Virus record (IMG/VR): IMGVR_UViG_3300045950_000297
Coordinates: 2,334-66,333 of that record
DNA from: a virus
Length of the DNA: 64,000 nt
Strand: one strand, 5' to 3'
Under the pieces are notes generated by a model, which saw nothing but the letters and a program-made list of their open reading frames with translations, ran no database searches and was not told where the DNA came from. This document shows positions 3,139 through 41,687 of this stretch, piece after piece (within the stretch, counting starts at the first letter, position 1; every line of letters begins with the position of its first letter). Position numbers and translations under genes: made by a program.

Positions 3139-4416
3139 CTACCTCCTCAGTGCATAGCCGGCGATGACTTGGGCCGCTATGTTGGATACCGCCCTGACGT
3201 GATCGGCGGTGGCATCGGGTGTATCGAATCTGGCATGGGCCATCTCATGGAGAGCGGTGCTGATGGCACTCTCAGGTTTGGACAGGATATGCCTGGAGAT
3301 GCCGATGGTGTTGCCACTATAGAACCCATCCCGGCCAGGGATGACGAACGCCCGCACGTCGTGGTCGTAGAACCTGGCGGTGCTGACGATGCGCCGCAAT
3401 GCCCTCAGCGTGCGCTTCTCCAGGCTGTTGAGCTGGCTGTCGGGGACAGGGACCTGATCTTGTCCCTCGATCTCTCGGATGTACTGGGTGTCCGTTCCCA
3501 CCAGTGAGCGCAGGAAGCGGCCTAGTGCATAGCTGAAGTGCCCCTCGTCAAGAACCTTCGCACCACGATACTCAGCCTCGCGGGCCATATCCCCATTGGT
3601 CCTCATCACCGTGTTGTGGCCGTAGATCGCATAGAATGCCTTCTTGATGACTGGCGTCGAGTCGCTACTGGTCAACCCGGCGAGACGTTCCGCCAGGCCC
3701 AGCTTCACTGCTGACCAGTACTCAGTCAGGAGGTCGTAATCACCGCATGCTCCCCACACATTGCCCATCTCGGATGTGACCGACCATGAGTCAGCCACCG
3801 TCCTGTCCCGGTTCATCTCTACGTTGTTCAGGTTGTACCCAAATGCGGCAGGGGTACTGACTGCCTTTCTCATCGGGCATACCCATACGTCACGAACGTA
3901 GAGAGAGGGCGACTCCTCCCGCAGAATCTGGCTGCCGGTGGGAGAGGTGTAGACAACGCGGGGGTCTCCTGGTTGAATGAAGCGCTCTGCGTACAACGGC
4001 CAGGGCCAGTTGGGGATGGTGATGCGTGTTCCTGGGAAGAGGTGACATTCCTCCCAAGTGATGGCAAGGACATCCTCAGCCATGCCATCGATTCGTCCGA
4101 CATGGTTGTGGATATTGTAGTGTCCGCTGGTGATCTGTGCCGTCAGGTTATGACGGGTTAATGCTAGCAGGGCGAGTTTCAACCCCTCACCGAACTGGCC
4201 GCGGGCATTGCCCTCTTTCTCCGACTTGCCGAACAGAAGATGGCTGATGTCCAAGCCATTGCCATCGTCCTCGATTGTGACAACTCCGTCTTTCAGACTC
4301 ATCTTCCAACTGCCTGAGTCCATAGCGTTGGATACCAGCTCACGAATGATAGACCAGCCCCCGTCGTCCCAGTGTGAGACGTAATCGAGGGTCATTGGAT
4401 AAGTGATGGTTGGCAT
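3139..4416 (-). CDS. GHKL (HATPase_c) ATPase fused to C-terminal HEXXH zincin-like domain
   Basis: RELVSNAMD, EDDGNG, GQFGEGLK motifs; LHEMAH near C-terminus. Confidence 0.8.
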   Translation of the reverse strand: MPTITYPMTLDYVSHWDDGGWSIIRELVSNAMDSGSWKMSLKDGVVTIEDDGNGLDISHLLFGKSEKEGNARGQFGEGLKLALLALTRHNLTAQITSGHYNIHNHVGRIDGMAEDVLAITWEECHLFPGTRITIPNWPWPLYAERFIQPGDPRVVYTSPTGSQILREESPSLYVRDVWVCPMRKAVSTPAAFGYNLNNVEMNRDRTVADSWSVTSEMGNVWGACGDYDLLTEYWSAVKLGLAERLAGLTSSDSTPVIKKAFYAIYGHNTVMRTNGDMAREAEYRGAKVLDEGHFSYALGRFLRSLVGTDTQYIREIEGQDQVPVPDSQLNSLEKRTLRALRRIVSTARFYDHDVRAFVIPGRDGFYSGNTIGISRHILSKPESAISTALHEMAHARFDTPDATADHVRAVSNIAAQVIAGYALRR

Positions 4417-4417
4417 G

Positions 4418-5146
4418 TTACCTCTGTGCATTCAGGCCGCTTCTTACGGTAGCGACCACTTCCCGCTCGGGTAACCCGAGTGATATTCCGACTGCAACCA
4501 GGATCATCTCGGTTGTATGCCGGCAGAGTGCCCCTGCTTGAACAAGTCGCCCTAACTTGAACGCGGCCGTGTTGAGAGCGTTGTTGCGGTTGCCCTTTTG
4601 GGCGCTCTGCAACTGCCCGATCTCGTTATGCAACGCCGCATTGACATAGTTGTCGCTCAACTTAACAGTGGGTGGTGGGGTATCGTCTGGCCGAACCAGT
4701 TCGAGAATCCAGGCAGGTAGCGGGGCAAGGGTTTCTTTTCCGGCCCACGTGTACACCTTGCCGGACGGATGGACCGAGGGAGGGGCAACTGCATAGCCAC
4801 CATCACCTCGGAGATCAAGACCGGGTTTCTTCTTGCAGAAGTTATGTACCTTGAAGCCGGGATGGGTGAAGTAGAACTGTCTTCCCTTGCCGGTAATCAC
4901 GGATAGTGTGTCCGGTTCTCCGTAGTGAGATAGCGTCTTCTCTCCATCCGCTCCGTCCACATCCAGAACGACCAGGTTGCTGATGCTCCCGGTCACAATC
5001 CCTACATTCATCTTCGGCCATAGCGCACGCCATTGTTCTATTTCATCTGGCGACGCTCGCCGGAGCTGGAATGCCTTCCACTGGATAAGTGGCCTTTTGC
5101 CGCGTGGACGGATTGGGATGATGGACCATGTTGGCAGATAGTCCAC
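4418..5146 (-). CDS. Bifunctional DNA primase-polymerase (prim-pol)
   Basis: K.P...W, NVGIVTG, LVVLDVD, TGKGRQFYF, GLDLRGDGGYAVAPPSVHPSG.Y.W; GTG start at 5146 lies downstream of a promoter. Confidence 0.88.
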   Translation of the reverse strand: MDYLPTWSIIPIRPRGKRPLIQWKAFQLRRASPDEIEQWRALWPKMNVGIVTGSISNLVVLDVDGADGEKTLSHYGEPDTLSVITGKGRQFYFTHPGFKVHNFCKKKPGLDLRGDGGYAVAPPSVHPSGKVYTWAGKETLAPLPAWILELVRPDDTPPPTVKLSDNYVNAALHNEIGQLQSAQKGNRNNALNTAAFKLGRLVQAGALCRHTTEMILVAVGISLGLPEREVVATVRSGLNAQR

Positions 5147-5175
5147 TTGAACCTTCCCCTGGTCTGTGTTATTAT
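5147..5175 (+). promoter_or_regulatory. Sigma70-type promoter for the 5205 gene
   Basis: TTGAAC-17-TATTAT with TGn. Confidence 0.5.
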
Positions 5176-5199
5176 ATGTACCAAATGGTCGAGAGGCAA
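5171..5199 (-). promoter_or_regulatory. Sigma70-type promoter for the prim-pol operon
   Basis: TTGCCT-17-TATAAT on the minus strand. Confidence 0.65.
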
Positions 5200-5204
5200 A
5201 CCAA

Positions 5205-5741
5205 ATGGACATGATCACGCTTGACGAAGCCAGACTCACCCGCCTGTATGAGATGCGGACCGATGTCCACCGGAAGTGGACTCTGGCTGAGCAGGCGGCC
5301 GAGATGGGGGTGAGCGAGTCAACGATCAAGCGGATGGCCCGCTCCCCCCAGTTCCTGGATGTCGTCAAGCGTTTGACGCCTGCTCGTTCGCCGATGATCG
5401 ATGCAGCGTCGGATTACCTGGCCGAGGATCTTCTGCCTCTGGCGATGCGGGAGACCAAAAGTCTCCTGGAGAACCCTCGTACTCCGGCGACGGCCAAGGC
5501 GAATCTGATCACTCAGATTTTCCGGTATGCCTTTGAGGTGATGAAGCCTCTTGATGGAAGTACTGCCGAAGTCCTGGCCGGGATGGATTTCCTGAAGCAG
5601 GCCGGCATTAGTCTGCAGCAGGTCAACATTATTGTGCAGCAGGCCCCACCTGAGTTTGCTGATGAGTTGCGGGCCTTGCTGCCGTTTGTTGATGGCGAGC
5701 TAGTTCAGGACATTGGCCATGAAGAAGTCGGGGGGGCTTGA
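5205..5741 (+). CDS. HTH protein, possible terminase small subunit
   Basis: TLAEQAAEMGVSESTIKRM HTH followed by helical region; isolated plus-strand gene with GAGG SD. Confidence 0.55.
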   Translation: MDMITLDEARLTRLYEMRTDVHRKWTLAEQAAEMGVSESTIKRMARSPQFLDVVKRLTPARSPMIDAASDYLAEDLLPLAMRETKSLLENPRTPATAKANLITQIFRYAFEVMKPLDGSTAEVLAGMDFLKQAGISLQQVNIIVQQAPPEFADELRALLPFVDGELVQDIGHEEVGGA

Positions 5742-6080
5742 TTTCTCCCGTTCTTTGGCCTTGGGCTTGGACGGCATGCTCACCCGTTTTGCGACAGCCT
5801 TGAATACCCTATCGTACTGTGGCAACATGCGGGTTATCAGCTCCTCCAGTTGAGCTGGTTCCCCGCTGGAGGGGTATCGAATCTCTGGTGCGCGGTCTCC
5901 AGGGAATACTGGCGAGTATCCGCTCCGATTTGGGTAGATGCCCCGGATGTGGATGTTGCCATTGGTTTCTGTGATCGACAGCACACGGTCATCGATTCTG
6001 AGCACGCATTTGTTATCGCGCGCTCGGAGTTCCCACCCATTTTTCTCGACGAGAACGATCAGGATATTCAGCAAGTTCAC
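5700..6080 (-). CDS. Hypothetical protein
   Basis: GTGA overlap with upstream DUF932 gene, GGAG SD. Confidence 0.65.
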   Translation of the reverse strand: MNLLNILIVLVEKNGWELRARDNKCVLRIDDRVLSITETNGNIHIRGIYPNRSGYSPVFPGDRAPEIRYPSSGEPAQLEELITRMLPQYDRVFKAVAKRVSMPSKPKAKEREKSSPPDFFMANVLN

Positions 6081-6976
6081 ATCTCCATGACCATCTTGAA
6101 TGCGCGTCGTTTGTTCTGCGCGGCTACTCCAAACAGCACTCCCTCGGCACGTTTGAGGCTACGTCGGTAGACATCCTCATACTCGACAAAGGAGTTGTAC
6201 AGGCCCCAGGCAGTACCGGCGAAGGCACGGCTGTCGGCGCCTGAGGCTGCTCCGTGGAATAGCTCAAGCACCCTGTGGCGGGTCATGTTCACCTTGGCTG
6301 TCCCCTCGCCGTTTTTGTAGGGATATACGCCCTCGATGACGGGTTTGGGGTCGTGCACCCTGCGCCGGGCTAAGATGTCGAAAGCCTCTTTGAGCACCTG
6401 AGAGTTCCGGAGGGCGCGGGTGTAAACACCACTGGCCCAGTCGGCCAGGTCTTTGAGGGGGTTGCCGATGTGAACGATGCGCATCACGTCGGTCGCCTGT
6501 CGCAGCCCGGAGATGAGCGTATTGGCACATACGACACGCACCGGTGTGATCATCCCGGTCAGAGCACCAGCACCGTCCATCCAGTTGACCAATCCGAGGT
6601 AGTTGGCTACCTCATCTCCATGGATATCGTAATCAGGCAACTTGGTGGTAAGGAAGAGAGCTTCCCCCTTGTACAATGCAGCCATCGTCTCGATTGGCCG
6701 CTGGACACACTCATCATACATGGCTATGAGGTCATCGGGTGTGATCAGGACGTATTCATTGCTGACGTAGCCAAAGACGGTCCGGTCGCGCATGATCGCA
6801 AACCGTGTAGTGGGGGTACCGTCGGGCAGGTGTAGACGTTCCCTGCGGACAGTGTAAGGCCCCATCTGGGCGTATGCCTCGGCGGCGGTCAGTTCCTTAT
6901 CCACCACGATCCCCTTGGCGTGCCAGGCGGGGACACGATAACCGACGAAACGGTCACCGAAAAGTGAGCTACTCAT
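6077..6976 (-). CDS. DUF932 family phage/plasmid protein
   Basis: PAWHAKG, ITPVRVVCANTL, GTAWGLYNSFVEY motifs. Confidence 0.85.
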   Translation of the reverse strand: MSSSLFGDRFVGYRVPAWHAKGIVVDKELTAAEAYAQMGPYTVRRERLHLPDGTPTTRFAIMRDRTVFGYVSNEYVLITPDDLIAMYDECVQRPIETMAALYKGEALFLTTKLPDYDIHGDEVANYLGLVNWMDGAGALTGMITPVRVVCANTLISGLRQATDVMRIVHIGNPLKDLADWASGVYTRALRNSQVLKEAFDILARRRVHDPKPVIEGVYPYKNGEGTAKVNMTRHRVLELFHGAASGADSRAFAGTAWGLYNSFVEYEDVYRRSLKRAEGVLFGVAAQNKRRAFKMVMEM

Positions 6977-7511
6977 TGTATCTCCTTGCATAGTGGATTG
7001 CCTCAACCAGGTGGCAGGTGTATGACTTCTGCCCCGCCATCTGGCTGATGGTATCACGGACTTTGAGGATAGTCAGGGTTTGCCGGTAGGATAACCCAAG
7101 CTGTGTCACTGCAGCCTTCAGGAGACGGAAGGCAGTCTCATCCAGTTCGTCCTGGATCATCTGCATGATCTCATCCGGCTGGGTGACAGGCACCTCGACT
7201 TCGATGTCATACTGACTGCGGAACAATTTGGTACGGTAGCGTCGCAGCCTCTTCAGGCTGCATACGCACTGAGTTGGGTAGAGTCCGCATGGGCATGGGT
7301 GCGCCCAGGCAACCTTACGCCGGCTGGGCTTGTTGCCGTAACGATTCCTGTACCAGTTCCGGTAGATTTGCACCAGGTCCGGAGCGATGCTCCTGCCGGA
7401 CCCGATGAAGCGGATGGAGTGATTGCCAGCGATAGCGATGCGCAAAGCCCGCTTGGCGTAGTGGGCACCCGGAAGGGTGGCAAGTTGCCTTTCAAGTTCC
7501 ATATTGGTCAT
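6969..7511 (-). CDS. Miniaturised ComM/YifB (Mg-chelatase-like) homolog
   Basis: G..YAKRALRIAIAGNHS, PCPCG...CVC, DIEVEV, LGLSYR...ILKVRDTI, HLVEAIHY; all ComM hallmarks in 180 aa. Confidence 0.8.
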   Translation of the reverse strand: MTNMELERQLATLPGAHYAKRALRIAIAGNHSIRFIGSGRSIAPDLVQIYRNWYRNRYGNKPSRRKVAWAHPCPCGLYPTQCVCSLKRLRRYRTKLFRSQYDIEVEVPVTQPDEIMQMIQDELDETAFRLLKAAVTQLGLSYRQTLTILKVRDTISQMAGQKSYTCHLVEAIHYARRYNE

Positions 7512-7900
7512 TGCCCTTCACACTCTGTTGCAACCCTATTCTTCAGGTTGGTCTTGTAGTCACTGAGGAGTGTAGCCCAGGCTGTGACGACCCCAAGGAC
7601 ATGGTTGTAGTCTTTCAGCGTGGGCAATGAGACCGTCCCTGTCGTTGCGTCTTGCATCCTGACGAGTACATCTTGGTGTGTCCCGTCAGGGAAGTTGAGC
7701 TGGTAGATGCCGGTCAGGCTGACCACCTCGCCGATTACTTTCCAGCCGGGGTAGGGGACAGCATACCTGCTCTCAAGATACTCACAGACGTTCTCCAGGA
7801 TAGCCTCCATGTTGGAGACCTCGGAATCAGACGCAAGTTTGTCGGGGCAGTGTGCTTGGAGGGCATTGACGATTGCGACGAAGTGGTGAGCGTTTTTCAC
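7508..7900 (-). CDS. Hypothetical protein
   Basis: Coupled ORF, GAGGAG SD. Confidence 0.65.
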   Translation of the reverse strand: MKNAHHFVAIVNALQAHCPDKLASDSEVSNMEAILENVCEYLESRYAVPYPGWKVIGEVVSLTGIYQLNFPDGTHQDVLVRMQDATTGTVSLPTLKDYNHVLGVVTAWATLLSDYKTNLKNRVATECEGQ

Positions 7901-10177: not shown

Positions 10178-10477
10178 TCATATCATCTGTACGACATAGG
10201 TGCGGACGTTGCCCGCGTACTCATGGACCTGTTCCAGTGATAACTCCATACCCTGTAGACTGATCGCCACAATGATATCGAGTGGGATGTTGAGTTCCAC
10301 TACAGTGATGCTGGCCGCCTCAGCGGCCAAGTGGTACGGTAGCGCTCCGATGACATGTTTGCCGCGCACATCGTCTGCCGTGGCTTGAGTTTTGACCTCA
10401 ATGTCGTCAGTGATGACATCTTGCTCACGGAGATACTCTACAAGCGCTTGATGGCGGGTGACGACAATTGTGCTCAT
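10178..10477 (-). CDS. Csx16 (VVA1548)-like protein, putative cOA ring nuclease
   Basis: VVTRH..LVEYL, VIGALPYHLAAE, G.ELS..Q motifs of the Csx16 family. Confidence 0.75.
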   Translation of the reverse strand: MSTIVVTRHQALVEYLREQDVITDDIEVKTQATADDVRGKHVIGALPYHLAAEAASITVVELNIPLDIIVAISLQGMELSLEQVHEYAGNVRTYVVQMI

Positions 10478-11487
10478 TTCGCTCCTCTCTGTAGGTAGAT
10501 GCTATCTGGTTTGGTGGGCATGGTAAGTCGCCACACCCGTCCTGTATCGGGTGGAACATCTGCGACTGGGCAGGCACGCAATCGTACTCCCAGTGCCTCG
10601 GACATCCCACGGATGCCATCTCCACCACGCCCAATGAAGTGTCCCATCATGTTCTGGGGCACCGGGATGTTCGGGTCCCCCTGGAAGGTGATGGAGAACT
10701 TCCCGCATCGAAAGAACGGTATCTCGCCGCGACGGGCCTGATGAATCTGGTCTATCACGGCATTGTACCACCTGCTATTCTCTCTCCAGCCATGGATGAT
10801 GTAGGAGAGGTTATGGAGTTCCAGCCCTATGATGACAAAGCGCTCGCCGTCCACATCGAAGGCAAACTGGGTATAGTTTGGTTCGTCCGGGTTAGCGCTC
10901 ACAACACCAAGGTAGGTGATGCCGACCTTTGAAGCCCTCTTAATGGCGTCTTCCACCAGCCGCTCGTATTGTTTCGCGAGTGTCTCAGCCAGTTCTCGTC
11001 GAGAACTCTCGCGTAGCTCTTCAATCTTGGCGTTCCATTCCGGGTTAGAGATGCTGAGGAGGCACCAGGAGGAATAGAACGCTCCCAGGATGACCCCATT
11101 GTAGTCCTCAACATCGAGGACGAGGTGCTGGTTCAAGAGGCGGATTGCCCTCTCGCACTCTGCTGGTGTAAGGAGATAGAACCCCCACTCTTCCTGGCGG
11201 GCGGCCGCCAGGACTTCTTCGGAGCAGTACTTAACGTCGCGAGCGGCGACATCATAGGTGGTCTCACCACCGAACGCATTCGGCAGCGGTTCGGGCAGTT
11301 CCTTGTAGGCCCGCAACCTCCGCTGCCCCATCATATTCTCACCGAACTCAACCGCGTCTGGCTTGCACCATGTCTTGAGCGAGTCGGTAAACGTCCGTAG
11401 GAACACAGACGCCATCTTCTCCTCGCTCTCCTGCTTCAGGGCGGCAGAGACTGCTGCCGCAATCTTGTCTTCCATCTTGTCCTCCAT
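10474..11487 (-). CDS. Protein with C-terminal KH domain
   Basis: MGHFIGRGGDGIRGMSEALG GxxG KH signature. Confidence 0.7.
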   Translation of the reverse strand: MEDKMEDKIAAAVSAALKQESEEKMASVFLRTFTDSLKTWCKPDAVEFGENMMGQRRLRAYKELPEPLPNAFGGETTYDVAARDVKYCSEEVLAAARQEEWGFYLLTPAECERAIRLLNQHLVLDVEDYNGVILGAFYSSWCLLSISNPEWNAKIEELRESSRRELAETLAKQYERLVEDAIKRASKVGITYLGVVSANPDEPNYTQFAFDVDGERFVIIGLELHNLSYIIHGWRENSRWYNAVIDQIHQARRGEIPFFRCGKFSITFQGDPNIPVPQNMMGHFIGRGGDGIRGMSEALGVRLRACPVADVPPDTGRVWRLTMPTKPDSIYLQRGAK

Positions 11488-11531: not shown

Positions 11532-12320
11532 CTACGGGTTTACGGCAACACGCTCTGGACTGATGCCAGCCCGGCGCAGTAACTCGACAGCACTCGCATC
11601 CACGCAAGCACCAGCAATAGCAATACCCTGCAGATTGGCACCAGCCAGTTTGGCACCTGTTAGATCTGCACTGCTCAGGTTTGCACCCTCCAGGTTAGCG
11701 CGGGTCAGGTTGGCACGTGTCAGATTGGCACAGCTGAGATTGACCGCACATAGGCACGCACCGGTTAGATCAGCATCCTGAAGGTCCGCATCTTCCAGGT
11801 TAGCACTATGCAGACTGGCATGTTGCAGATCGGCACTTTGTAGCCTGGCACCGGTCAGAGCAACCACCTCCAAGTCGGCCCCCGCTAACCTGGCGTTGCT
11901 TAGGTCGGCATAGGCCAGGTTTGCACGGTACAGCCTGCCTATCGTCAGGTCTGCATCCTGAAGGTCTGCAGCATAAAGGTTCGCGCTATGGAGGTTTATG
12001 CCCTGAAGGTTTGCGCCAATCATAGTAGCACACATCAGATTCGCACCCGCCAGATTGGCACTCTGAAAGTTGGTGCCCGACAGGTCAGCACCCGACAAGT
12101 TAGCATTCCTAAGGTCAAGCCCCTCCAAGTCGGCACCACTCAGATCAGCACCACTCATCGACCAGAGAGGAAGCAAATTACGCCCCCGATCAAGAAGCCA
12201 GTAGAGAGGGGACCGTAACAGCTTGAGCTGCTGGTCCCGTGACCACTCAAGCCTCGGGAGCTCTTGTAGGATGGTATCAATGTCCTCTATCTTCTGAAGC
12301 TGATCAATTGTGATCTTCAT
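11532..12320 (-). CDS. Pentapeptide repeat protein (paralog 1)
   Basis: Tandem A(D/N)Lxx repeats after a shared N-terminal domain. Confidence 0.92.
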   Translation of the reverse strand: MKITIDQLQKIEDIDTILQELPRLEWSRDQQLKLLRSPLYWLLDRGRNLLPLWSMSGADLSGADLEGLDLRNANLSGADLSGTNFQSANLAGANLMCATMIGANLQGINLHSANLYAADLQDADLTIGRLYRANLAYADLSNARLAGADLEVVALTGARLQSADLQHASLHSANLEDADLQDADLTGACLCAVNLSCANLTRANLTRANLEGANLSSADLTGAKLAGANLQGIAIAGACVDASAVELLRRAGISPERVAVNP

Positions 12321-12499: not shown

Positions 12500-13144
12500 T
12501 CATCTTTCCTCATTGTTGAGATTAGTATTCGTCAGGTTGGCACCGGTGAGGTCTGCGGCGTGCAGGTCTGCATTGGTGAGGTTAGCGTTGGTGAGGTTAG
12601 CGCGGTATAGGCAGGCGCCGACCAGGTTGGCGTCTCTCAGGTCTGTGTTGGTGAGATTAGCGTTGCTGAGGTTAGCTTCGCTGAGGTTTGCGCCAATGAG
12701 GTTGGTGCCTTCCAGGGTTGAGGCGTGCAGGTTTGCCCAGTGCAGGCTTGCGTTCTCCAGGTTGGCGTTGGTGAGGTCTGCCCCTTCGAGGTCTGCGCCG
12801 GTGAGGTTGGCGCCTTTGAGGTCTGCACCGCTGAGGTTGGCGCCTTCCAGACCTGTGCCGATCAGGTCGGCGTCGGTTAGATTGGCGCCTCTGAGGTCGA
12901 CGCTGCCGAGTGTGGTACGGCGCAGGTCTGCGTTGGTCAGATCAGCGTGTGCCATGCTAAGACATGGGACGAGGCCGATGTCCCACGCCCACGATAGGTA
13001 CCTTCGCAGCGGGGACCTCAGAATCTCCATCTGGGTATCAACAGTCCACTCGCCCTCCCACCCTTCCGGGTAGAGGGCATTGAATGCCTCGATGCCGGAG
13101 GGGCATGCGCCTCGTGCGGTCAGGTCGTGGCGTGTGATCTTCAC
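12500..13144 (-). CDS. Pentapeptide repeat protein (paralog 2)
   Basis: A(D/N)Lxx repeats; N-terminus MKITRHDL..GAC..GIEAF. Confidence 0.92.
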   Translation of the reverse strand: MKITRHDLTARGACPSGIEAFNALYPEGWEGEWTVDTQMEILRSPLRRYLSWAWDIGLVPCLSMAHADLTNADLRRTTLGSVDLRGANLTDADLIGTGLEGANLSGADLKGANLTGADLEGADLTNANLENASLHWANLHASTLEGTNLIGANLSEANLSNANLTNTDLRDANLVGACLYRANLTNANLTNADLHAADLTGANLTNTNLNNEER

Positions 13145-13849: not shown

Positions 13850-14359
13850 TTAGATAATGTGGGCGGTCGGCCTGAAGCCTGACGCCCGGAGTTCCTGCAT
13901 TGCCCGGCCCGCCTCACGGCGGTCCCGGACGGGCCGTTTGTGGACCGTCTCCCCGTCGGTCCACTGGATAATGATGGTGGGCGTGGCCGTCGTGACGGCC
14001 ACTTTCGTGGCGACGCCGGCCGCCTTTGCCCGGGCGACCAATTCCCGGGCCTTTGCCCACGTGGTGGGCCGGTCTGGGCCGATGGAGCGCTGGCCGGTGC
14101 TGGCCTCGCTCTGCCAATGAAGGACGACCCTCCCCCGGGAGAAGGGAAGGTCGCGCACGAGTGCTCGCACGGCTAACATGTGCTTGCACTCGTTCCCTGC
14201 CAGGTGGTCTTGGCAGGTGCAGGATGTTGGAGTCACCTGGTAGCGGGCCTGGCCGGTGCCCGCCACTACGTAGTGTGGGTTTTCCTCAGTTGGGTAACTG
14301 ACGACTTTGCCCGCCCGGACTACCTGGCGGGCGCGGTTGATGCGGGCCTGGTCAGTCAT
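13850..14359 (-). CDS. SWIM zinc-finger protein
   Basis: SCTCQDHLAGNECKHMLAV; start MTDQ coupled to upstream micro-ORF. Confidence 0.75.
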   Translation of the reverse strand: MTDQARINRARQVVRAGKVVSYPTEENPHYVVAGTGQARYQVTPTSCTCQDHLAGNECKHMLAVRALVRDLPFSRGRVVLHWQSEASTGQRSIGPDRPTTWAKARELVARAKAAGVATKVAVTTATPTIIIQWTDGETVHKRPVRDRREAGRAMQELRASGFRPTAHII

Positions 14360-14442
14360 CCCCGGTACCCACAGTTCGGGCACCGGGTGACCCACCCGAA
14401 GGTCTCGTGCCCGCAGAACGGGCACACCCTGAATAGAAACAT
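14356..14442 (-). CDS. 28-aa CPxCG zinc-ribbon micro-protein
   Basis: MFLFRVCPFCGHETFGWVTRCPNCGYRG; AGGAGAGG SD, ATGA overlap. Confidence 0.7.
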   Translation of the reverse strand: MFLFRVCPFCGHETFGWVTRCPNCGYRG

Positions 14443-14511
14443 CTTCCTCTCCTTGTTGGTGGGGCGAAGCGGGGGAGACCCTCTGCTCCGCCCCCGATTT
14501 GGGATTGAAGT

Positions 14512-15186
14512 CTACCTGACCAGCGATAAGTCCACGCCGGTCAGGTTGGCGCCCTCGAGGTTGGCATGGTCTATGTTAGCACCATCCAACCTTGCGCCCG
14601 CCAGGTCGGCGCCGGCCAGGTCGGCCCTACTCAGGTCCGCCCTGACCAGGGTGGCGCCGCGCAGGTTGGCCCCCTCCAGGTTGGCGTGCTCCATGCGGGA
14701 CTCCGCCAGGTTGGCCCGCCTGAGGTTAGCCTGCCTGAGGTTAGCGCCTCCCAGGATGACCCCGCGCAGGCTGGCGCCGGTCAGGTTTGTGCCCTCCAGG
14801 TTGGCCCACTGGAGGTTGGCCACCTCCAGGTGGGCGCCCTCCAGGTTGGCCCCCTTGAGGTCCGCGCTGGCCAGGCGTGCCCCGACCAGGCGTGCCCGCC
14901 TGAGGTTGGCACCCTGCAGGTGGGCGCCCGCCAGGTCGGCGCCGGCCAGGTCGGCATCGCTCAGATTGGCGCCGGTCAGCCCCGCCCTGGTCATCGACCA
15001 GAGCGGAATGAGACCGCGCCTCCATGCCCGCCCAAGCCACCTGCGGAGGGGCGTGCGTAGAAGTTCGAGCTGCTGCGCCCGGGTCCATTCGAGCACAGCA
15101 ACGCCACTTGGGAATGCCTCCAGGAAGACTTCTATGCCCTCCTGGCATGCTTCCATGGCCTCTAGGTCTGCAAGCGTTATTCTCAC
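14512..15186 (-). CDS. Pentapeptide repeat protein (paralog 3)
   Basis: A(D/N)Lxx repeats; AGGAG SD. Confidence 0.92.
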   Translation of the reverse strand: MRITLADLEAMEACQEGIEVFLEAFPSGVAVLEWTRAQQLELLRTPLRRWLGRAWRRGLIPLWSMTRAGLTGANLSDADLAGADLAGAHLQGANLRRARLVGARLASADLKGANLEGAHLEVANLQWANLEGTNLTGASLRGVILGGANLRQANLRRANLAESRMEHANLEGANLRGATLVRADLSRADLAGADLAGARLDGANIDHANLEGANLTGVDLSLVR

Positions 15187-15288
15187 TTGGGTTCTCCTGC
15201 GAGTTTAGGGGGCTTGCCCAAGCCCCACTCCATGGGTTAAAAAGGGGGGTGGGGCGGCCCCATGCTGTCGCACAGGGCCAGGCTACGC

Positions 15289-15591
15289 CTACCAGGACGC
15301 CACGTCCGCCTCCTCGGCGGCAGCGTCCGCGTCGGGGTCGTACTCCCGACGCACCGCCGCTGAAGCCGACACTCCACCCGCTGCCTGAATGGCGTCGGCG
15401 AGAGTGTCGGACTTCTGGCCGTATACCTCTGCTCGGTGCGCCGACTCTGCCGCACCAAGCGCCGAGTTCGCCTTAGCCCAGGCGCTGATATGCCCGGGCT
15501 TGGCAAAGTCACAACCGGGACACACAACAACAGTGCCCCAATTGCGAGATTCCTCACGCAGTTCGTGCCCGCAGCGGCACACCTTATCCAT
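15289..15591 (-). CDS. Zinc-ribbon protein
   Basis: MDKVCRCGH...CPGCDF; GGGAGGG SD. Confidence 0.65.
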   Translation of the reverse strand: MDKVCRCGHELREESRNWGTVVVCPGCDFAKPGHISAWAKANSALGAAESAHRAEVYGQKSDTLADAIQAAGGVSASAAVRREYDPDADAAAEEADVASW

Positions 15592-15843
15592 TTCGCCCTC
15601 CCAGCCGGCATTGTTGTGTGTGTGGGGACTAGGGCATTCACCCCACTGTGCGGCCAAGGTCCTCGCTGTGCGCGATGCCGCTTTGTCGTGGTTTACAGGC
15701 CACGCCCCGAATTGACGCCGCCCCCGCCTCACTGCGGCGTCGTGCGGGCTTGTGCTGGTGCGCACAGGCCCCGCTCCCTTTGAAACTGCCACTTCGACCG
15801 ATAGCACCGTCGTGGTATGTTCACTTCTTATGATACTCAAGAC

Positions 15844-16515
15844 CTACTTTAACCCCCTCACACAAGACAGGTCTCCAGGAATTGGAAGCATCTTCCTCGC
15901 CTTTGTTAGTCGAGCGAGGCGGGTTTGTCCCAATTGGCTACCTGACAGGTCGGCGCCTTCCAGGTCAGCGCCACTCAGGTTGGCATTGGTGAGATTGGCC
16001 CAGCTGAGGTTGGCGCCTCTGAGGTCTGCATCGATGAGATTAGCGTTGCTGAGGTCGGCACCGATGAGGTTGGTCCAACTGAGGTTGGCGTCTGTCAACC
16101 TGGCGTTGGTGAGGTTAGCCTCACTCAGGTTGGCGCGGGTGAGGTTGGCCCTCACCAACCTGGCGTTGGTGAGATTAGCACCACGTAGGTTGGCATTGGT
16201 GAAGTTGGTACCCACCAGGCGAGCGCCCCTCAGGTTGACGCCCTCCAGGTTAGCGCCAGCGAGGTTCGCTCCCTCCAGGTCGGCACCACTGAGGTCTGTT
16301 CTGCTCAGGTCCACCCTGGCCATGGACCAGAGTGGAATGAGACCGTTTGTCCACGCCCATCCTATCCACCGGCGGAGGGGTGTTTTGAGGATGTCGAGTT
16401 GCTGTGCCCTGGTCCACTCAAGCGCGGCAATCCCGTTTGGAAACTCGTCCAGGAAGTCGTCAATGCCTTCATGGCAGACGTCTAATTCTTTCAGGTCATC
16501 AATAGTTATTTTCAT
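15844..16515 (-). CDS. Pentapeptide repeat protein (paralog 4)
   Basis: Start MKITIDDL by homology to paralogs; A(D/N)Lxx repeats. Confidence 0.9.
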   Translation of the reverse strand: MKITIDDLKELDVCHEGIDDFLDEFPNGIAALEWTRAQQLDILKTPLRRWIGWAWTNGLIPLWSMARVDLSRTDLSGADLEGANLAGANLEGVNLRGARLVGTNFTNANLRGANLTNARLVRANLTRANLSEANLTNARLTDANLSWTNLIGADLSNANLIDADLRGANLSWANLTNANLSGADLEGADLSGSQLGQTRLARLTKARKMLPIPGDLSCVRGLK

Positions 16516-17230
16516 AGAATTGGTAAGGGTCTTCGATCCCCATGAAGGTGCTGAGTTTGCGGATGAGGTCATTGATGTCTGCTATTGGGAAGAGGCGCAC
16601 GTTGTTGATGAGTGGGCCGTTTTGGGTTGTGATATCGAAGCGTGGGATGGAGTCGGTGATGTTGTCATCCCAGTAGAACTTGACTCCGTTGTGTTCCATC
16701 CTTTGGCGGCGTTGTTTGTCTGTGTGGTTTCTGCGTGTTTCCAGGGGTGGGCGGTCGGGTATTGGGCCGCGGTAGGCGTGGATGCCGTGGATGGTGATAT
16801 CCTGTCCTTTGAGGATGACCAGGATGTCGATTTTGTCTTGCATGTCTACGTAGAGGTCATAGAGCACTATGGTGTTGCGTATTTGGCGTCGGTGTTCCAG
16901 GGCTTCTTTGAGGCAGCAGTACAGGTACAGTTCGGCGATGCCGATCTCCCAGAGGACTGATATGCGGAAGTCCATTTGGGGGGTTTTGTAGTGGGGGAGG
17001 AGGTGTTGTGTGTTGTATCCGGCCTCGATGTTTTCGCGGAAGACTCTGATGAGGTCTGTGTGGGTGGGCAGTGTGTATCTGGCCATGGCTTTGGTTGTGA
17101 CTGAGGCGAAGAGCATGCGCCAGGAGGGGAGGGGCAGTTGCCAGACTTCATCGGATGAGGTACCTGGGCGGTGGTAGGTGGGGAGGGCGGTGAGTTGTTT
17201 GAGGAACTTTTCGCGCAGCATGTCGATCAT
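16499..17230 (-). CDS. Hypothetical protein (possible PD-(D/E)XK-like fold)
   Basis: 243-aa ORF; weak DMQDKIDILV motif. Confidence 0.6.
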   Translation of the reverse strand: MIDMLREKFLKQLTALPTYHRPGTSSDEVWQLPLPSWRMLFASVTTKAMARYTLPTHTDLIRVFRENIEAGYNTQHLLPHYKTPQMDFRISVLWEIGIAELYLYCCLKEALEHRRQIRNTIVLYDLYVDMQDKIDILVILKGQDITIHGIHAYRGPIPDRPPLETRRNHTDKQRRQRMEHNGVKFYWDDNITDSIPRFDITTQNGPLINNVRLFPIADINDLIRKLSTFMGIEDPYQFYENNY

Positions 17231-20122: not shown

Positions 20123-20456
20123 GATCAGGCGGGCCGTCTATGAACGCGACGGCCGATGCCTGGTCTGTGGCAAGTTCGTCACATATGAAAGTATGCACCC
20201 CCACCACATCCAGACGCGAGGCAGTGGTGGGGGTGATACTGAAGACAATCTGATCTGTTTGTGCGGTCGGTGTCACGACAGGGTGCATTACTCCTATCTG
20301 ACACTGGACGGCGAGGAATACGAGGTCACCTCCGGGGTGCTGAGAGCACTCCTGCTACTCGTGCACGGCATTGACGCCGGACCCGAGACGCAGGAAATAG
20401 CGACAGCCGAGAAGTTACTGGCGCGCTATTCCCTGGAGGTGGGGTGGGTCTTCTAA
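20109..20456 (+). CDS. HNH endonuclease (terminase-associated)
   Basis: RDGRCLVCG, HHI..GGG..EDNLICLCGRCHDRVH. Confidence 0.9.
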   Translation: MLKDEIRRAVYERDGRCLVCGKFVTYESMHPHHIQTRGSGGGDTEDNLICLCGRCHDRVHYSYLTLDGEEYEVTSGVLRALLLLVHGIDAGPETQEIATAEKLLARYSLEVGWVF

Positions 20457-23248
20457 CATCTAACGAACGGGCACTGTTCACCCTTGCCCTGGCTGGCGGC
20501 TACAGCCAGTTCACCAAATACTTCTTCGACTGGGAACCCCTCAAGACCCAGTGGGTTGAGCACTACGCGCCACAGGTCGACATAACTCTCCTGGGGGGCA
20601 TTGGGAGCGGCAAATGTGTTCATCCCGCGACGCTGGTCTGGACTCCATCTGGTGCACGCATTCCTGTATCCAATGTAAAAGCTGGCCAGGAGATATTATG
20701 CATCGACGAGAAGTCGCTGCAGTTCGTCTGGGGAACGGTCTCTGGCATCTTCGACAACGGTGTACAACCCCTGCTGCGTATTCGTACCGGCATCGGGCAT
20801 GAGATCAAATGCACACCCAACCATCCTGTTCTCACCGTGTCAGGTTGGGTACGGGCTGATTCCCTTGAGATCGGACGGCGAATTGCCACGGCCAGACGTT
20901 ACCCTACTAGAGAGCAGAGCGCGACTCTTACAGAAGCCCACATGCTGATTCTCGGTTTTCTGATTGGTGATGGCGGGCTTACACAAGATTCCGCACGGTT
21001 TACCAATACCAATCCAGAGTTGGTGTATCTACTGGAAGAAGCACTCGAAGTCATCGGCCCATACTACCTCAACCGTTCCGGCGGAAATAGTAACCGCAGC
21101 CCGACTTACACGATACGCGATAGACAACAATGTGGGAGCAACGGCAACGGAGTAGTCCGCTGGTTGCGCGAGTTGGGGTTGTTCAAGTGCGGGTCACACG
21201 ACAAGTTTGTGCCGGATATCGTGTTTGATCAGCCTAACCAGATAATCGCCGCGTTTTTGCGAGCGCTCTATGCATGTGATGGATGGGCATACGCCAAAGG
21301 CAAACGCCAAGCTCAGATTGGCTATGGCACAGTATCTCTCAGGCTGGCCACCGATATCCGCGACCTGTTGCTGCGGTTTGGAATTGTCGCCAGGATACGC
21401 AAGAAGTCATCTAGGTGCACCGGGAGGGTTTTCTCGAGCTACGAGGTAACTATCGATAGCAAGCGTGACCAGATCGTCTTTTGTGACCAGATAGGTATTT
21501 ATGGCAAGCAAAGGCAACTGGATGCAGTCTACGCTGTTGCCAGCAAGGTTGGCCGCTATGGCATAAGACAAGGCGGCAGCAACGATGTCATTCCACGTGA
21601 CGAGATTCACGAATATGTTCTTGGGCGTGCTCGTGAACGCGGGACTCCATTGTGCGGTAAGGGTGACGGACATGTAGAACTATTTGGCAAATACCGCCTG
21701 CGTGGCAACCCGTGCCGAGACAAGGTACAGATGCTGTCCGAGTGGTTGGAAGATGGCAGATTGCACGCGCTGGCAAACAGCGATGTGTACTGGGATAAGA
21801 TTGTCTCGATCGAGATGTTGCCAGCACAGCCAACATTAAACCTTGAGGTTGTTCCCTACCACAACTTTGTCGCTGACGGAATTGTTACTCATAACACCGC
21901 CGGCAAGGGGCGCTCCTTCCTCACCAAGATTCTCACCATCCCGTGGTATCGCGGTCTGAACACCTCGATCTCGTCGTTTCAGGCGACCTTGATGTTCTAT
22001 GACCTATTGCCGATCGTGGAGAGCAATCCCAGGGTCTCGCGCTTCATCAAGGACATCCGCACCAAGCCCTACCCCAAGATCACCACTATCTGGAACTCAT
22101 ATCTCTCGTTCATGACGGTTGGGTACCAGGCCCAGGGAATCCGTGGGTCGGAGTGGGATGAGATCAACTTCGATGAGGGGGGTTATGAGCGGGCCGAGGA
22201 AACATTGATCGCGCTGCGCGGACGCCTGAGAGGCAAGCGCGAAAATGGGGTGGAGAGGCTGGCCCGTCTGTCGGTCACCACATCCCCAACCGACGTCCCG
22301 TGGTTGCGGCGCCGATGGGAGCGTGGTGTCAAGGGATCACGGATGGAGGTCTACGACCCCCAGCAGTACGCTTCGCTGCGGTCCACGCTGTTCGACAATC
22401 ATCATATCCCCGCCTGGCAACGCGACGCGATCATCCGCGATCTTCCCGAGGAGATGGTACAGCAGGAGATCATGGCCGAGTTCCCAGATTGGGGAGACTC
22501 GGAGTTTCCCGAGAAACACATCAACGCCTGTGAGACCACCGCCCTGAATGCCTATATGGAGCACCTCATCAATCCGATCGTGGTCCAGGAGAATGGCGAA
22601 GAGACCACCGGGACTCTGTGTAAAGAGGCTGTCTACATCGAGTTGCCGCATGTCGGCTGCACGCTGTGGGAGCTGCCCCCCCAGCCTGGGCATATCTACG
22701 TTTTGGCATCCGACCCGGGGACGTCCAGCCCCCCCAAGCGCAATACGGCAGTTGTGCTTGTCTTTGACGTGACCGCCAAACCCTACCGGCTGGTCTATTT
22801 CCACTGGGTATCGGGCAATGGGTCCTACACCCCCTGGCTGCGCAGTTTTCGTTACGCACTCGACAAGTACCAGTGTGTGTTGAGGGGACTTGATGCAACC
22901 GGTCCACAAAAGGCGCTCGATGAGCTGGTCCTGGAGCGCGATGGCATCCACGTTGATTCGGTCAACTTCAGCCGCGACAAGATGGGCATGCTGAATGCTC
23001 TGAAGATGCTGCTTCAGAATCATGATCTTGAGTTTCCCTTCATCAAGGGACTGAGGGCACAGCTGCGCTCGTACAAGAGCGACGACAAGGACCTGGCACA
23101 AGACATCGTGGCAGCCTTGATGGTCTTCGCTTACATCCACAAGCATGTCCCCGGAGCACATCCTCCGACAACCGTCGTGACCGCCGCCACAATGAGTCGC
23201 CGTGGCCAGCGCGGAACACTCCGACAACTGAGGAGATCAAGACGATGA
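20444..23248 (+). CDS. terL: Terminase large subunit with intein
   Basis: Walker A GGIGSGK|T split by intein, Walker B NFDEG, RNaseH-like DPG, DATG, DIVAAL. Confidence 0.93.
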   Translation: MGLLTSNERALFTLALAGGYSQFTKYFFDWEPLKTQWVEHYAPQVDITLLGGIGSGKCVHPATLVWTPSGARIPVSNVKAGQEILCIDEKSLQFVWGTVSGIFDNGVQPLLRIRTGIGHEIKCTPNHPVLTVSGWVRADSLEIGRRIATARRYPTREQSATLTEAHMLILGFLIGDGGLTQDSARFTNTNPELVYLLEEALEVIGPYYLNRSGGNSNRSPTYTIRDRQQCGSNGNGVVRWLRELGLFKCGSHDKFVPDIVFDQPNQIIAAFLRALYACDGWAYAKGKRQAQIGYGTVSLRLATDIRDLLLRFGIVARIRKKSSRCTGRVFSSYEVTIDSKRDQIVFCDQIGIYGKQRQLDAVYAVASKVGRYGIRQGGSNDVIPRDEIHEYVLGRARERGTPLCGKGDGHVELFGKYRLRGNPCRDKVQMLSEWLEDGRLHALANSDVYWDKIVSIEMLPAQPTLNLEVVPYHNFVADGIVTHNTAGKGRSFLTKILTIPWYRGLNTSISSFQATLMFYDLLPIVESNPRVSRFIKDIRTKPYPKITTIWNSYLSFMTVGYQAQGIRGSEWDEINFDEGGYERAEETLIALRGRLRGKRENGVERLARLSVTTSPTDVPWLRRRWERGVKGSRMEVYDPQQYASLRSTLFDNHHIPAWQRDAIIRDLPEEMVQQEIMAEFPDWGDSEFPEKHINACETTALNAYMEHLINPIVVQENGEETTGTLCKEAVYIELPHVGCTLWELPPQPGHIYVLASDPGTSSPPKRNTAVVLVFDVTAKPYRLVYFHWVSGNGSYTPWLRSFRYALDKYQCVLRGLDATGPQKALDELVLERDGIHVDSVNFSRDKMGMLNALKMLLQNHDLEFPFIKGLRAQLRSYKSDDKDLAQDIVAALMVFAYIHKHVPGAHPPTTVVTAATMSRRGQRGTLRQLRRSRR
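20615..21895 (+). mobile_element. Intein with LAGLIDADG homing endonuclease (427 aa)
   Basis: N-terminal CVHPAT, block B TPNHP, LGFLIGDG and FLRALYACDG, C-terminal HNFVADGIVTHN followed by Thr. Confidence 0.95.
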
Positions 23249-36864: not shown

Positions 36865-39800
36865 ATGCTTCCAACTCCAGGTTGGCAACGTGCTGTGTTT
36901 GGCCGGACGGCCAATCGGCAATGGGGAACCTCTTTGAGTGGGTTCTCGATGCAGGTGAGCGGTTTTACCGGCGAGTTCGAGCGTTTTGTGGACCCGCCGT
37001 GGTTTGCCATTCAAAGAATCGTCGGTTTGTATGGCCTGATCGGTGAAAGCGCACGCCGTGCCCAATTGGGCAAGTCGTCGTTGGAATGGTCGGCCCGGGC
37101 ATTGCCGCAGACGGCCTTCGGGCAGCTTGCACCCGAGGATATCCTGTACGGCACGCCGGTTGCGCAAGATGTGCTCAGACGAGCTAACCCACTGCAATGG
37201 GCGGATGCCTTCCAAATCAAGCCCAACCTGGCGCAGGACATTCAGGAGTTCTCGGCGATGTATGCGTCGGGACGGCGGTATCTGTCCCCGCGTGAGGCCA
37301 GGGCTGCGTCGCGGGTGGTCAGTGAGGCGTTCACCCACATGCGGGCGGGGCAGGCAGCATACCAGGCGATCATCGGCCGGCAAAAGTTTGTGGCCAATGT
37401 GTTGGCCGGGATGTACCGGACAGACTCAAGTGGGGCCTTTCTCCGTGGCGACACAGATGTTCTGCCGGACGACTTCATCGAATATACCCTTGACGACTTC
37501 GGCCTGAAGTATGGGACCACCTACGGGGAGTTTCGCCAGCGGTATGACCAGCCGACGACGACCGGCCTGCACCAGATTGCCAGCACGGCAGCGACGAGCT
37601 ACGAGGCCCAGGCCGCCGAGCTGGCCCCGGGCGGGGCTGTGTTCAGGCAGGTGGATAGCATCCAGAAAGCGGTCCGCCTGGCCGCCCGGGCTGAACGCGA
37701 GACGCAGCGTTACCAGATGGCGGGGGAGGCAGAGTACATGCACGCTGTCCAGCCTGGGGTTGCGTCATTGCGAGGCGGCCTTGGTGGCGCGCTACGCGAG
37801 GCTGAGGCGTCCATTCGTTCCTTCGCGGACACGCTGGACAAGAGGGGCAAGGTCTCGGTGGAGCAATACTCGTCGATGCTTCAAGAGAGCTTGCAGAGTC
37901 TCGACTCGAAGATGAAGATGATCGACATCCACGGCAGCGCGTTGAGCAAGGATGCTGTGCGTCTCAAGTATGAGGTCGAGCAAGGTGTCAGCGCTACCGA
38001 GATCGACCCGCGGACCGGGAAGCCGCGTCAGCTTGGCTTTCACGAGCATATAGCAAGGAGTCGAGAGTTACAGGCTGTCCAACTGGAGCAGGGCCAGTTG
38101 GACGCTGCGATGTTGAGGTTGCGCGAGAGGTATGTTGCGGCTGACGCTGAGCACGACCGATTGCGGCCGGAGTTGCAGCGCAGGCGGGAGAACTTCCGCC
38201 GTTCGCAGACAATTCAGCATGCCCTGTGGGCACCCTGGCAGGTCGAGATGATGCGTGCATTCGGCGAGCTTCCGGCGCAGGAGGCGTTCCTGTACGCGGC
38301 GGAGGTTGACAAGCTGCAATCGGATGCGGCCTATCTCTCTGGGGGGACGTCGGTGGGGGTGTCGGCGGAAGCCGGCCGGCGGAGTGCGGATGCGGCCTTT
38401 GCGCAATACTATCGCGGGCGCGGGGCGGAGAGCGGTTTTCTGGGGATATCGGCATTCATCAACCGGATGATGGCCGATAACCCTGCCCTGGCCAGGACAT
38501 TGGGGTCTGTCCAGCCCTGGTTGACCGGGGCGGGCTACCTGCTGATGGGGGAGTTGTACACCTCGCAGATGACCGGCGGACGGATGGGCCTGTTCTTGGG
38601 AGATGACGGGAAGCTGTTCGGGAGGCATTCGGTCGTCGGCAATATTCCCAGGTTCGGGCGCGATGTTGGGGCTGCTTTTTCTCTGATGGGCCAGCATCCC
38701 CAGGCATTGGGGACTATCGCCGGCATGGGGGCGGCCGGAGCAACGGCGGCCGGCCTGGCTGGGGCCGGCATCGTGGCTGGCACGGCTGCCGTGATTGGTG
38801 CTGGATGGGAGGCAGCCCGGAGTCTCGGCGCGCTGCCGGGGAGGCAGGACTTCCTGACCGAACTCGGGTCTGGGGCGAGAAACATCTGGGGGGAGATCGT
38901 CAAGAGTCATGACGAACTCTTCCTGGTTAGTAATCTGCTCAGTGGTATGGGATTCCCCGAAGCGTGGAAGCAAGCGCAGCAGGATGCAGCGATCGCCGGT
39001 GCGTGGGCAGCCGGATATATGCCGTCGGACTCAGATGATGATGTGACCAAGGCCAGGCGGGCATTGGTCGGGGCTGGCTATGCCAAGGGGGACCGGATCG
39101 ATCCGCAGGCGATTGCCGCATCGCGCGCTCAGGCGGCAGCGATTGGCTTGACTGATCTCGATCAATGGGCCAGGGTGTATGCTGGCCTGGGGCAGTTCGA
39201 GGGCGCATTGGGGATGGAGGCCGGTGATATCTTCTCCCAGATGGCCCAGAACGCGCGGAGTACAGGGTTTATGGGGGCCCAGGCTACTCAGTATGTCGAG
39301 ATCATGGGACGGCTGATGCAGACGTTGCCCGAGTCACAGCGGCCCTACGCCATGGCTGGTCAGGAGCTGGCCGGGATGCAGGCCCAGACTTTGATGCAGC
39401 TGGGCAAACGAGATGTGATCGGCATGATGCCATCCCTATTGCGACAGGGTGTCGCCCAGGCCCAGATGGGCATGACCGTCGTCGACAAGCAAATCGAGCT
39501 GGCCAATCGGACAACGCAGAGGCAGATACTGGGCATGGGGCTTGAATTCTCGATGAGAATCCCAGAGATGCTCCAGTGGGGGATGGAGTATGGTCAGGAT
39601 CCTATGCTGGGAGCTCAGCTGGCTGCCCGGGCTTCGGCTGCATATGGAGGAGCGACCCCGCGTTTTGGCGCCGACTACTTCATTGACATGGCCAGGCCAG
39701 GGGCAATGCGGGCTTGGGACATGCAGCGCTACAGCGATGTGTCTGCAGCGTTAGCTCCATACGCCACACAGTTCCGGTGGGATGGAGACACACTGGAAGC

Positions 39801-41115: not shown

Positions 41116-41275
41116 CCCCCGGGAAAAAAGGAGGCCCCCCAGTCAAGGCACCTCTCCGTCTTGGTAGGGGGTGGTCATCTTGGCAGAAAGCCTTCCACGA
41201 ATGAGATAACACCTGTCAAGAGGGAGGTTGTTTTTACCAGGAAGCAATCTCTGAACGAGACGATGCCTATCAGTG

Positions 41276-41319: not shown

Positions 41320-41390
41320 GTGGGTTCTCAAACGTCACGGTCTAAGGTGACCACAAGATAAATGCCCCCGCCCTCGCCTGCGGAACGCTG

Positions 41391-41682: not shown

Positions 41683-41687
41683 ACAAC

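Follow-up and report, generated by a model that had tools for sequence, protein, structure and literature searches.

The phage protein described here, designated mini-ComM, is a pseudo-ATPase derived from the recombination helicase ComM; it is unable to bind or hydrolyse ATP in the manner of ComM and cannot be a helicase. Its gene lies at 6969..7511 on the minus strand of a 64,000-nucleotide stretch of viral DNA, called the window below (positions 2,334 to 66,333 of the IMG/VR record IMGVR_UViG_3300045950_000297). The protein belongs to a large, mainly phage-borne family whose members have undergone a common reduction, and this ComM-derived pseudo-ATPase family of phages is previously undescribed. 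Concerning function, the most economical view is that it interferes with the ComM pathway. More specifically, the best reading, put forward tentatively, is that mini-ComM is a DprA-binding decoy of ComM; it is preferred because it accounts for the pattern of retained and discarded residues, and because it agrees with the prediction of a complex. Accordingly worded as a mechanism, the retained alpha0 helix and lid face, where ComM receives the winged helix of DprA, would bind the DprA of the host, and mini-ComM would compete with ComM so that the helicase would not be recruited to the single-stranded DNA loaded with DprA and RecA. The expected outcome would be less branch migration and less integration of long or heterologous DNA, and the recombination affected would include events able to delete or rewrite the phage. 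As a variant of this scheme, DprA might be captured for the phage's own use.

Sequence relationship with ComM

The kinship with ComM is supported by profile searches and by comparison with solved structures. The Pfam family Mg_chelatase matches mini-ComM in two stretches (E-value 1.5e-8; 34.7 bits for a cut-off of 20.3) and the lid domain Mg_chelatase_C (PF13335) is found at residues 122–174 (2.4e-6; 28.5 bits for a cut-off of 26). The NCBIfam model TIGR00368 (YifB) is recognized in three stretches with an E-value of 6.4e-15, yet the score of 54.7 bits is below the curated cut-off of 362.4, as is that of NF007365 (20.7 bits for a cut-off of 530), and PHROGs gives no match for the window protein. 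Among solved structures, the sole real match is Legionella ComM (8rxd, 4.5e-6), which aligns in three pieces, residues 10–38, 66–116 and 125–176 of mini-ComM corresponding to residues 191–219, 341–397 and 445–497 of ComM. The parts of ComM without counterpart are residues 1 to ~183 (the Lon domain and linker), ~220–340 (~120 residues, from the P-loop to the NPCPCG strand) and ~398–444 (~47 residues before the lid). The catalytic glutamate of ComM, E302 in the numbering of PMC11612176, falls in the missing ~220–340 stretch. The gene and its recognizable parts are as follows.

6969..7511, minus strand: mini-ComM gene, 180 amino acids; reduced AAA+ base (beta1, beta4, beta5), zinc knuckle and Mg_chelatase_C lid.
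7425..7463, minus strand: alpha0 helix, residues 17–29, HYAKRALRIAIAG; K20 and R21 columns 81–100% conserved in mini and full-length forms.
7380..7406, minus strand: degenerate P-loop, residues 36–44, IGSGRSIAP; without the Walker A lysine or threonine.
7260..7298, minus strand: zinc knuckle PCPCG-x5-C-x-C, residues 72–84; C73, C75, G76, C82 and C84 present.
7191..7211, minus strand: beta5 strand YDIEVEV, residues 101–107; the preceding arginine-finger motif of ComM, S-G-..-D-R, replaced by F-R-S-Q.
6981..7139, minus strand: lid, Mg_chelatase_C, residues 125–177; helices 125–138, 142–159 and 164–174.

An earlier examination of the letters (the sequence-only reading) had described an intact open reading frame (ORF) of 180 amino acids that combines ComM motifs with a deleted ATPase core. 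The ORF indeed starts with ATG and is uninterrupted, and all the motifs quoted are present, namely AKRALRIAIAGNH at residues 19–31, FIGSGRS at 35–41, PCPCG..C.C at 72–84, DIEVEV at 102–107 and, in the lid, LGLSYRQTLTILKVRDTISQ...HLVEAIHY at 138–174. The deletion of the core is equally confirmed by the three-piece alignment, in which the Lon domain and the Walker B block are missing. In detail, the Lon-protease-like N-domain (ChlI, PF13541) has no Pfam match in mini-ComM, which begins ~9 residues before alpha0. The Walker A motif GxxGxGK[ST] is missing, A43 occupying the column of the lysine (100% K in the long forms), and so are Walker B with the catalytic glutamate, sensor 1 and the arginine finger; H71 stands in the sensor-1 asparagine column, and F97, R98, S99 and Q100 in the S-G-D-R columns. 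Compared with ComM/YifB (TIGR00368; Legionella 8rxd), mini-ComM thus shows homologous alpha0, beta1, CPCG..CxC zinc motif, beta5 and Mg_chelatase_C lid, but it differs by its length (180 versus ~500 amino acids) and by the loss of the Lon-like N-domain, the Walker A lysine, the Walker B block, sensor 1 and the arginine finger.

A family of reduced ComM proteins

The panel of relatives was obtained by an exhaustive HMMER scan of 1.84 billion representative proteins with the window protein, which returned 667 proteins at E ≤ 1e-3, 33 at ≤ 1e-10 and 2 at ≤ 1e-30 (one being the query). The class counts given below rest on the best 150 of these 667 relatives, from which 13 were dropped to leave 137: the two tandem doubles P0010 and P0014, the 103-amino-acid fragment P0096, eight sequences that appear to be terminal pieces of longer proteins (P0046, P0083, P0088, P0116, P0128, P0138, P0144 and P0145), and the giant false positives P0051 and P0072. 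The last two are spurious as relatives, one being a repetitive TPS/MBG protein and the other having no matching stretch at all. The 137 relatives comprise 77 proteins of <300 amino acids without Walker A, 20 of <300 amino acids with Walker A and 40 of at least 300 amino acids. Alignment of the short forms with the window protein extends from end to end, and ~97 of the best 150 matches share its architecture. The mini-ComM family was defined by a length of 150–260 amino acids and the succession of alpha0, beta1, a short linker, beta4, the zinc knuckle, beta5 and the lid, without the Walker B block; the window protein has this architecture and aligns end to end with 68 other minis.

Conservation is strong and unequally distributed. 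In the 69 aligned minis, C73, G76, C82 and C84 are invariant, and the columns of R21, A22, A26, C75, E170, A171, Q173 and Y174 are conserved to at least 90%. The 40 long forms show 79–100% conservation in the Walker A G/G/K/T, sensor-1 Asn, S-G-..-D-R arginine-finger and sensor-2 S/R columns; in the 77 P-loop-less minis those ATP-site columns are conserved to <30% or replaced (14–29% or replaced for the Walker A G/G/K/T). Other columns are conserved alike in both groups (77–100%), that is the alpha0 pattern K-R-A-x-E-x-A-x-x-G-x-H, PCPCG, C-x-C, the beta5 Asp, the L, A and T-I-A columns of the lid and its final H-x-x-E-A-x-x-Y. The Walker-A minis are intermediate, with the P-loop 100% kept and the arginine finger and sensor 1 lost. 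In these 20 short forms (P0027, P0037, P0055, P0065, P0068, P0080 and others) GxxGxGK[ST] is intact and the Walker B block absent; judging from these motifs, they may bind nucleotide without hydrolysing it.

A quick maximum-likelihood tree contains a branch, with a Shimodaira–Hasegawa-like approximate likelihood ratio (SH-aLRT) support of 91 (not starred), that sets apart 64 P-loop-less minis, the window protein among them; the Walker-A minis are found between the P-loop-less minis and the long forms. This topology, modestly supported and obtained with a midpoint root, with the P-loop columns kept in and from a sample that is the top of one match list, suggests a stepwise reduction from ComM. 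A mainly viral distribution is indicated by the three nearest ESM Atlas clusters (198–216 amino acids, 94–142 members, score 0.93–0.95), which are 65–83% viral and mostly from Uroviricota. The names given to relatives in their sources are automatic only ('magnesium chelatase family protein', 'predicted ATPase with chaperone activity'). Dozens of 50%-identity clusters with conserved motifs show the two internal deletions of the window protein. Mini-ComM is considered to be maintained by selection because the family is large and shares both its architecture and its conserved surfaces.

A scan of IMG/VR with the single window protein gave no match. Another IMG/VR scan gave nine loci in all; eight are taken as carriers of short forms, with a guanine + cytosine (GC) content of 35% to 64%, and their minis lie among many small genes on the same strand. 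One of these eight (L004) is more likely a comM junction adjoining a large serine recombinase. Genes near the minis in these viral loci encode DnaB/RecA-like proteins, an MT-A70 methylase, a GIY-YIG protein and a DNA polymerase III beta-like protein; no gene of the eight loci is homologous to any neighbour in the window, and no Pfam family recurs among the neighbours. Phage records in GenBank contain no match to the window protein, to its 8-kb neighbourhood or to the relative P0009, and a single partial match to P0036; they therefore hold almost no P-loop-less forms. The Walker-A mini P0027 matches 26 GenBank records, mostly uncultured gut phages with longer forms, in addition to comM junction fragments. 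Only one of the 69 minis has a match in PHROGs, a weak one, and a word-indexed protein search returned the window protein itself only.

A scan of genome contigs with the shared lid motif mainly retrieved full-length ComM of Chloroflexota. Some loci found outside viral records deserve mention for themselves. In a SAR324 genome (G003:C17:117927-119394), a full comM is followed downstream by two additional pieces of the comM 3′ end, one of them interrupted by two stop codons, an arrangement that looks like a mobile-element junction at comM. In several genomes of the Chloroflexota sample (for example G145:C9:47370-47855, G216:C28, G201:C91 and G118:C12), the C-terminal half of ComM is found in open frames of only 170–200 amino acids, in some cases in addition to another copy; a split comM gene, a contig end or a further short form could account for each.

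Fold of mini-ComM

When AlphaFold2 is given the window sequence alone, the model is poor, with a predicted local distance difference test (pLDDT) value of 45; with the 69-row family alignment, the pLDDT rises to 94.6 and the predicted template modelling score (pTM) to 0.87. This model displays strands at 33–37, 67–70 and 103–107 and helices at 3–11, 17–28, 43–58, 86–96, 112–122, 125–138, 142–159 and 164–174. The modelled strands are beta1, beta4 and beta5 of the AAA+ base, which makes a predicted three-stranded instead of five-stranded sheet. The order of strands in the AAA+ sheet is 5-1-4-3-2; beta5, beta1 and beta4 being adjacent in it, the loss of beta2 and beta3 leaves a contiguous sheet of three strands.

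Structural comparison confirms the fold but not a particular lineage within it. With VIA-align, all top 50 matches are AAA+ modules (Z 7.6–9.4 over residues 1–180) and no clade stands out, domain III of DnaA, RFC and the clamp loader being among the top matches (Z 8–9.4). Foldseek returned weak generic AAA+ rows in PDB and BFVD (best E-value 1.5e-3). When the profile of the mini family is compared with PDB, ComM is the only match (8.7e-30). The delta and delta-prime subunits of the clamp loader are catalytically dead AAA+ modules that serve as adaptors. The minis resemble such adaptors in that a fold is kept for its surfaces without the ATPase motifs, and clamp-loader chains are among the structural matches (Z 8.2); they differ in having no sequence relation to them beyond the AAA+ fold.

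Predicted docking on the winged helix of DprA

The published basis for a link with DprA is the interaction of its C-terminal winged helix with the Mg-chelatase domain (lid) of ComM, as given in PMC12012524, where L455 and R497 of ComM are at the DprA interface and the L455E and R497E changes disrupt or reduce the interaction. In addition, YraN also binds ComM, according to 10.1101/2024.02.06.579203. The fact that the minis keep the lid and alpha0 and discard the motor leads to the hypothesis that they bind the DprA winged helix in the place of ComM.

A mini and a DprA from one genome were needed for modelling. They were sought in a sample of 251 Chloroflexota genomes, of which 158 contain a ComM-type match at E ≤ 1e-25 (a tally that takes in the unpublished genomes G232, G150 and G043). 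Among the matches listed (12 are not), only one, G122:C55, covers the mini profile from 5 to 193 in a single stretch. Genome G122 also encodes a full ComM and a DprA of 368 amino acids with a winged helix, 82–89% identical to Chloroflexus DprA; its mini lies among orphan genes, a TnpB gene and a gene for an HTH_3 protein, near a contig end. Residues 303–368 of this DprA (59-row alignment) and the G122 mini of 208 amino acids (70-row alignment) were used as input. The interface score ipSAE reached 0.73, 0.68 and 0.72 in the three runs (median 0.72) and was 0.00 for all three controls; the pLDDT of the partners is at least 77, and at least 80% of the contacts are shared between runs. The calibration mark for such scores is reached by 58 of 80 solved complexes and by 2 of 110 mismatched pairs, and it is only a rough guide here, where own alignments were used. 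In PDB, DprA and ComM chains never occur together in one entry, so that a high score is unlikely to come from a remembered structure. Altogether, the modelling supports binding of the G122 mini to the winged helix of DprA.

The predicted contacts on the G122 mini are in alpha0 (7–10, 12–13), the first lid helix (151–158) and the last lid helices (176–199), together with a few other residues. The 27 contact columns have a mean conservation of 0.659, compared with 0.453 for all 195 columns, a value reached by none of 10,000 random column sets. They include near-invariant R, H, E and Y and are conserved equally in full-length ComM; in the window protein they hold K20, R21, L130, A134, I155, H167, E170, Y174 and R177, among others. 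This geometry is comparable to the docking of the DprA winged helix on ComM: the contacts predicted for the G122 mini are on the first and last lid helices, and the interface described in PMC12012524 involves the Mg chelatase domain, L455 and R497 of V. cholerae ComM being likened to the minis by lid region and not by aligned column. The difference lies in the consequence, since the contact on ComM recruits a working motor, whereas a mini has none and its binding would be competitive or sequestering.

Several considerations weigh against a DprA-directed decoy. The complex was predicted for the G122 relative only, which is 30% identical to the window protein and comes from a Chloroflexus-like genome, and the window protein departs from the consensus at two contact columns, V169 (A) and H173 (Q). 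The contact columns are also the most conserved of the family; they could owe this conservation to folding, given the packing of alpha0 against the lid, and structure predictors tend to favour conserved patches. Binding to DprA leaves the invariant zinc knuckle without explanation. At the level of gene context, no gene family recurs beside the minis in the eight viral loci, none being found in more than 2 of the 52 neighbour proteins, and mini-ComM is found in an early replication-type block (with Prim-Pol, DUF932 and HATPase_c genes) and not in a lysogeny module. Finally, a tyrosine integrase and a resolvase/serine recombinase were looked for in the 66-kb record, estimated to be 68% complete, and none was found; a prophage-protecting role therefore lacks support from gene context.

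Two relatives, P0010 (531 amino acids) and P0014 (549 amino acids), contain two tandem mini-ComM modules each, after a cysteine-rich N-terminus. DprA is a dimer, and its two winged helices could both be clamped by such a tandem protein. A generalization to the family would state that, in tailed phages of many hosts, ComM-derived pseudo-ATPases sit on the winged helix of the host DprA and exclude ComM from recombination intermediates, the tandem doubles clamping the DprA dimer; in this extended form the proposal is speculative and less secure than for mini-ComM itself.

Genomic context

The source is a record of 66,333 bases, labelled 'provirus' in IMG/VR, from a tailed phage; its source contig measures 140.8 kb and includes host flanks. 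For this stretch no RNA data set is listed, and the one DNA data set listed may be the sample of origin. The structural and lysis genes comprise a terminase-sized ORF interrupted by a LAGLIDADG intein, an SPP1-type portal gene and a gene for a SpoIID-domain protein, and the replication genes encode AAA_24 and DnaB proteins; neither DprA nor its winged helix (DprA_WH) was found in the 66-kb record. Mini-ComM belongs to a long minus-strand block, with Prim-Pol at 4418–5368 and, further along, DUF5131 and three pentapeptide-repeat proteins. Its immediate neighbours are as follows.

7508..7900, minus strand: upstream ORF, 130 amino acids, without clear family; its stop overlaps the mini-ComM start.
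6077..6976, minus strand: downstream DUF932 gene (DUF932 3.3e-29; phrog_1221).

The TGA stop of the upstream ORF lies within ATGA at the start codon of mini-ComM (4-nucleotide overlap), and the likely start of the DUF932 gene, ATG 6976 after AAGGAG, leads to an 8-nucleotide overlap with the mini-ComM stop (ATGAGTAG). The translational coupling claimed in the sequence-only reading is thus borne out on both sides, as far as overlaps read from the DNA can indicate it.

Other features of the window are reported for completeness. The three pentapeptide-repeat proteins (11532–12320, 12500–13144 and 15844–16572, all on the minus strand, in the same early block; Pfam Pentapeptide 1e-83 to 5e-47) may constitute a second host-interference module, pentapeptide-repeat proteins being often DNA mimics. 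The HATPase_c (GHKL-type) protein of 430 amino acids (3139–4431, minus strand; phrog_6077) is encoded directly downstream of Prim-Pol (minus strand), with a 14-nucleotide overlap. A protein of 337 amino acids (10474–11487, minus strand) has a weak C-terminal match to a KH domain (1.6e-4), unusual for a phage early region. On the plus strand, the 934-amino-acid ORF at 20444–23248, just upstream of the portal gene, contains an intein with a LAGLIDADG homing endonuclease and is presumably the terminase large subunit split by this intein, and four very large consecutive ORFs (1746, 1418, 1215 and 1870 amino acids; 31622–51519) account for ~20 kb of the structural arm. The GC content is 0.652 at 14001–16000 and 0.55–0.60 around.

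Alternative explanations

A phage-internal role in replication or recombination is a serious rival, although less likely than the decoy. Here, mini-ComM would be an accessory factor without link to ComM or DprA, either an adaptor or loader for the phage DnaB, Prim-Pol or AAA_24 (Sak4-like) recombinase, or a DNA-binding factor. Its position in the early block fits such a role, as does the presence of DnaB and AAA_24 in the same phage, and the replication-, recombination- and methylation-type genes beside minis elsewhere point in the same direction. The initiator- or loader-type AAA+ modules among the best structural matches could be read likewise, but the Z values are equal across AAA+ clades and so do not point to loaders. 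This explanation also meets the difficulty that no partner gene is conserved beside the minis and that selection has preserved the surfaces specific to ComM, at the positions where contacts with DprA are predicted.

The sequence-only reading had favoured a dominant-negative inhibitor of ComM acting as a poison subunit, which would insert into or cap the ComM rings of the host and stall them. The homology with ComM agrees with it, parts of both ring interfaces may remain since beta1, beta4, beta5 and the lid are kept, and nucleotide binding at an interface might persist in the twenty Walker-A minis. However, the Walker A lysine, Walker B block, sensor 1, arginine-finger motif and Lon ring domain are gone. 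ComM is reported, in PMC11612176, to form hexamers only with ATP and DNA (in structures where the zinc finger is not resolved), and its Lon domains supply one interface of the ring. Thus, the idea of interference with the pathway stands as the most economical one, but the poison subunit as such, deprived of the ATP-dependent ring elements, is improbable. As the lid face is kept and a relative is predicted to bind DprA through that face, a decoy aimed at the recruiter is a better fit than a subunit that poisons the helicase.

More improbable still is a counter-defence function, in which the DprA-binding face would target DprA-like or ComM-like parts of anti-phage systems instead of the transformation machinery. 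A conceivable target is ShosA of the ShosTA system, a DprA-like antitoxin that binds RecA and single-stranded DNA, and the minis are found among small early genes typical of host-takeover regions; on the other hand, ShosA is described with SAM and DprA folds and an extra helix, and the word 'winged' is missing from the main text (PMC12961424 for these points).

Lastly, the evidence from the family rules out a decaying remnant of a host comM fragment, acquired at an integration junction in this serine-recombinase hotspot. Mobile elements often split comM (PMC12378983) and some short matches are comM fragments (P0046, P0083 and others; Acinetobacter phage records), but the mini-ComM ORF is intact inside an operon, no recombinase was found in the record, the two internal deletions recur with conserved motifs and the fold is predicted with confidence.

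Novelty and significance

No account of miniature ComM proteins in phages, or of a decoy directed at DprA, came up in literature searches. In the accessible main text of a 2025 review of mobile elements versus competence (PMC12378983), no protein mimic of a helicase docking domain is described, the words 'mimic' and 'dominant' being missing, and the strategies covered are gene disruption, transcriptional or RNA-level repression and interference with quorum signals. The same text covers comM insertion (by AbaR and serine-recombinase phages), RokLS20, the RocRp small RNA and paratox, with which mini-ComM would share a proposed weakening of host transformation or recombination; these systems act by disruption, repression or signal interference, whereas a protein mimic is proposed for mini-ComM.

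From an evolutionary viewpoint, mini-ComM is a clear case of an AAA+ motor cut down to a binding module, and Walker-A intermediates of this process survive in databases. Regarding the biology of phages and their hosts, few genes are destroyed by mobile elements as often as comM, for reasons that are debated, one idea being protection from 'curing' mediated by transformation. If the decoy reading is true, mini-ComM would represent an independent route, trans-acting and at the protein level, to what insertion into comM achieves, and it would offer a simple genetic tool separating the RecA-loading role of DprA from its ComM-recruiting role.

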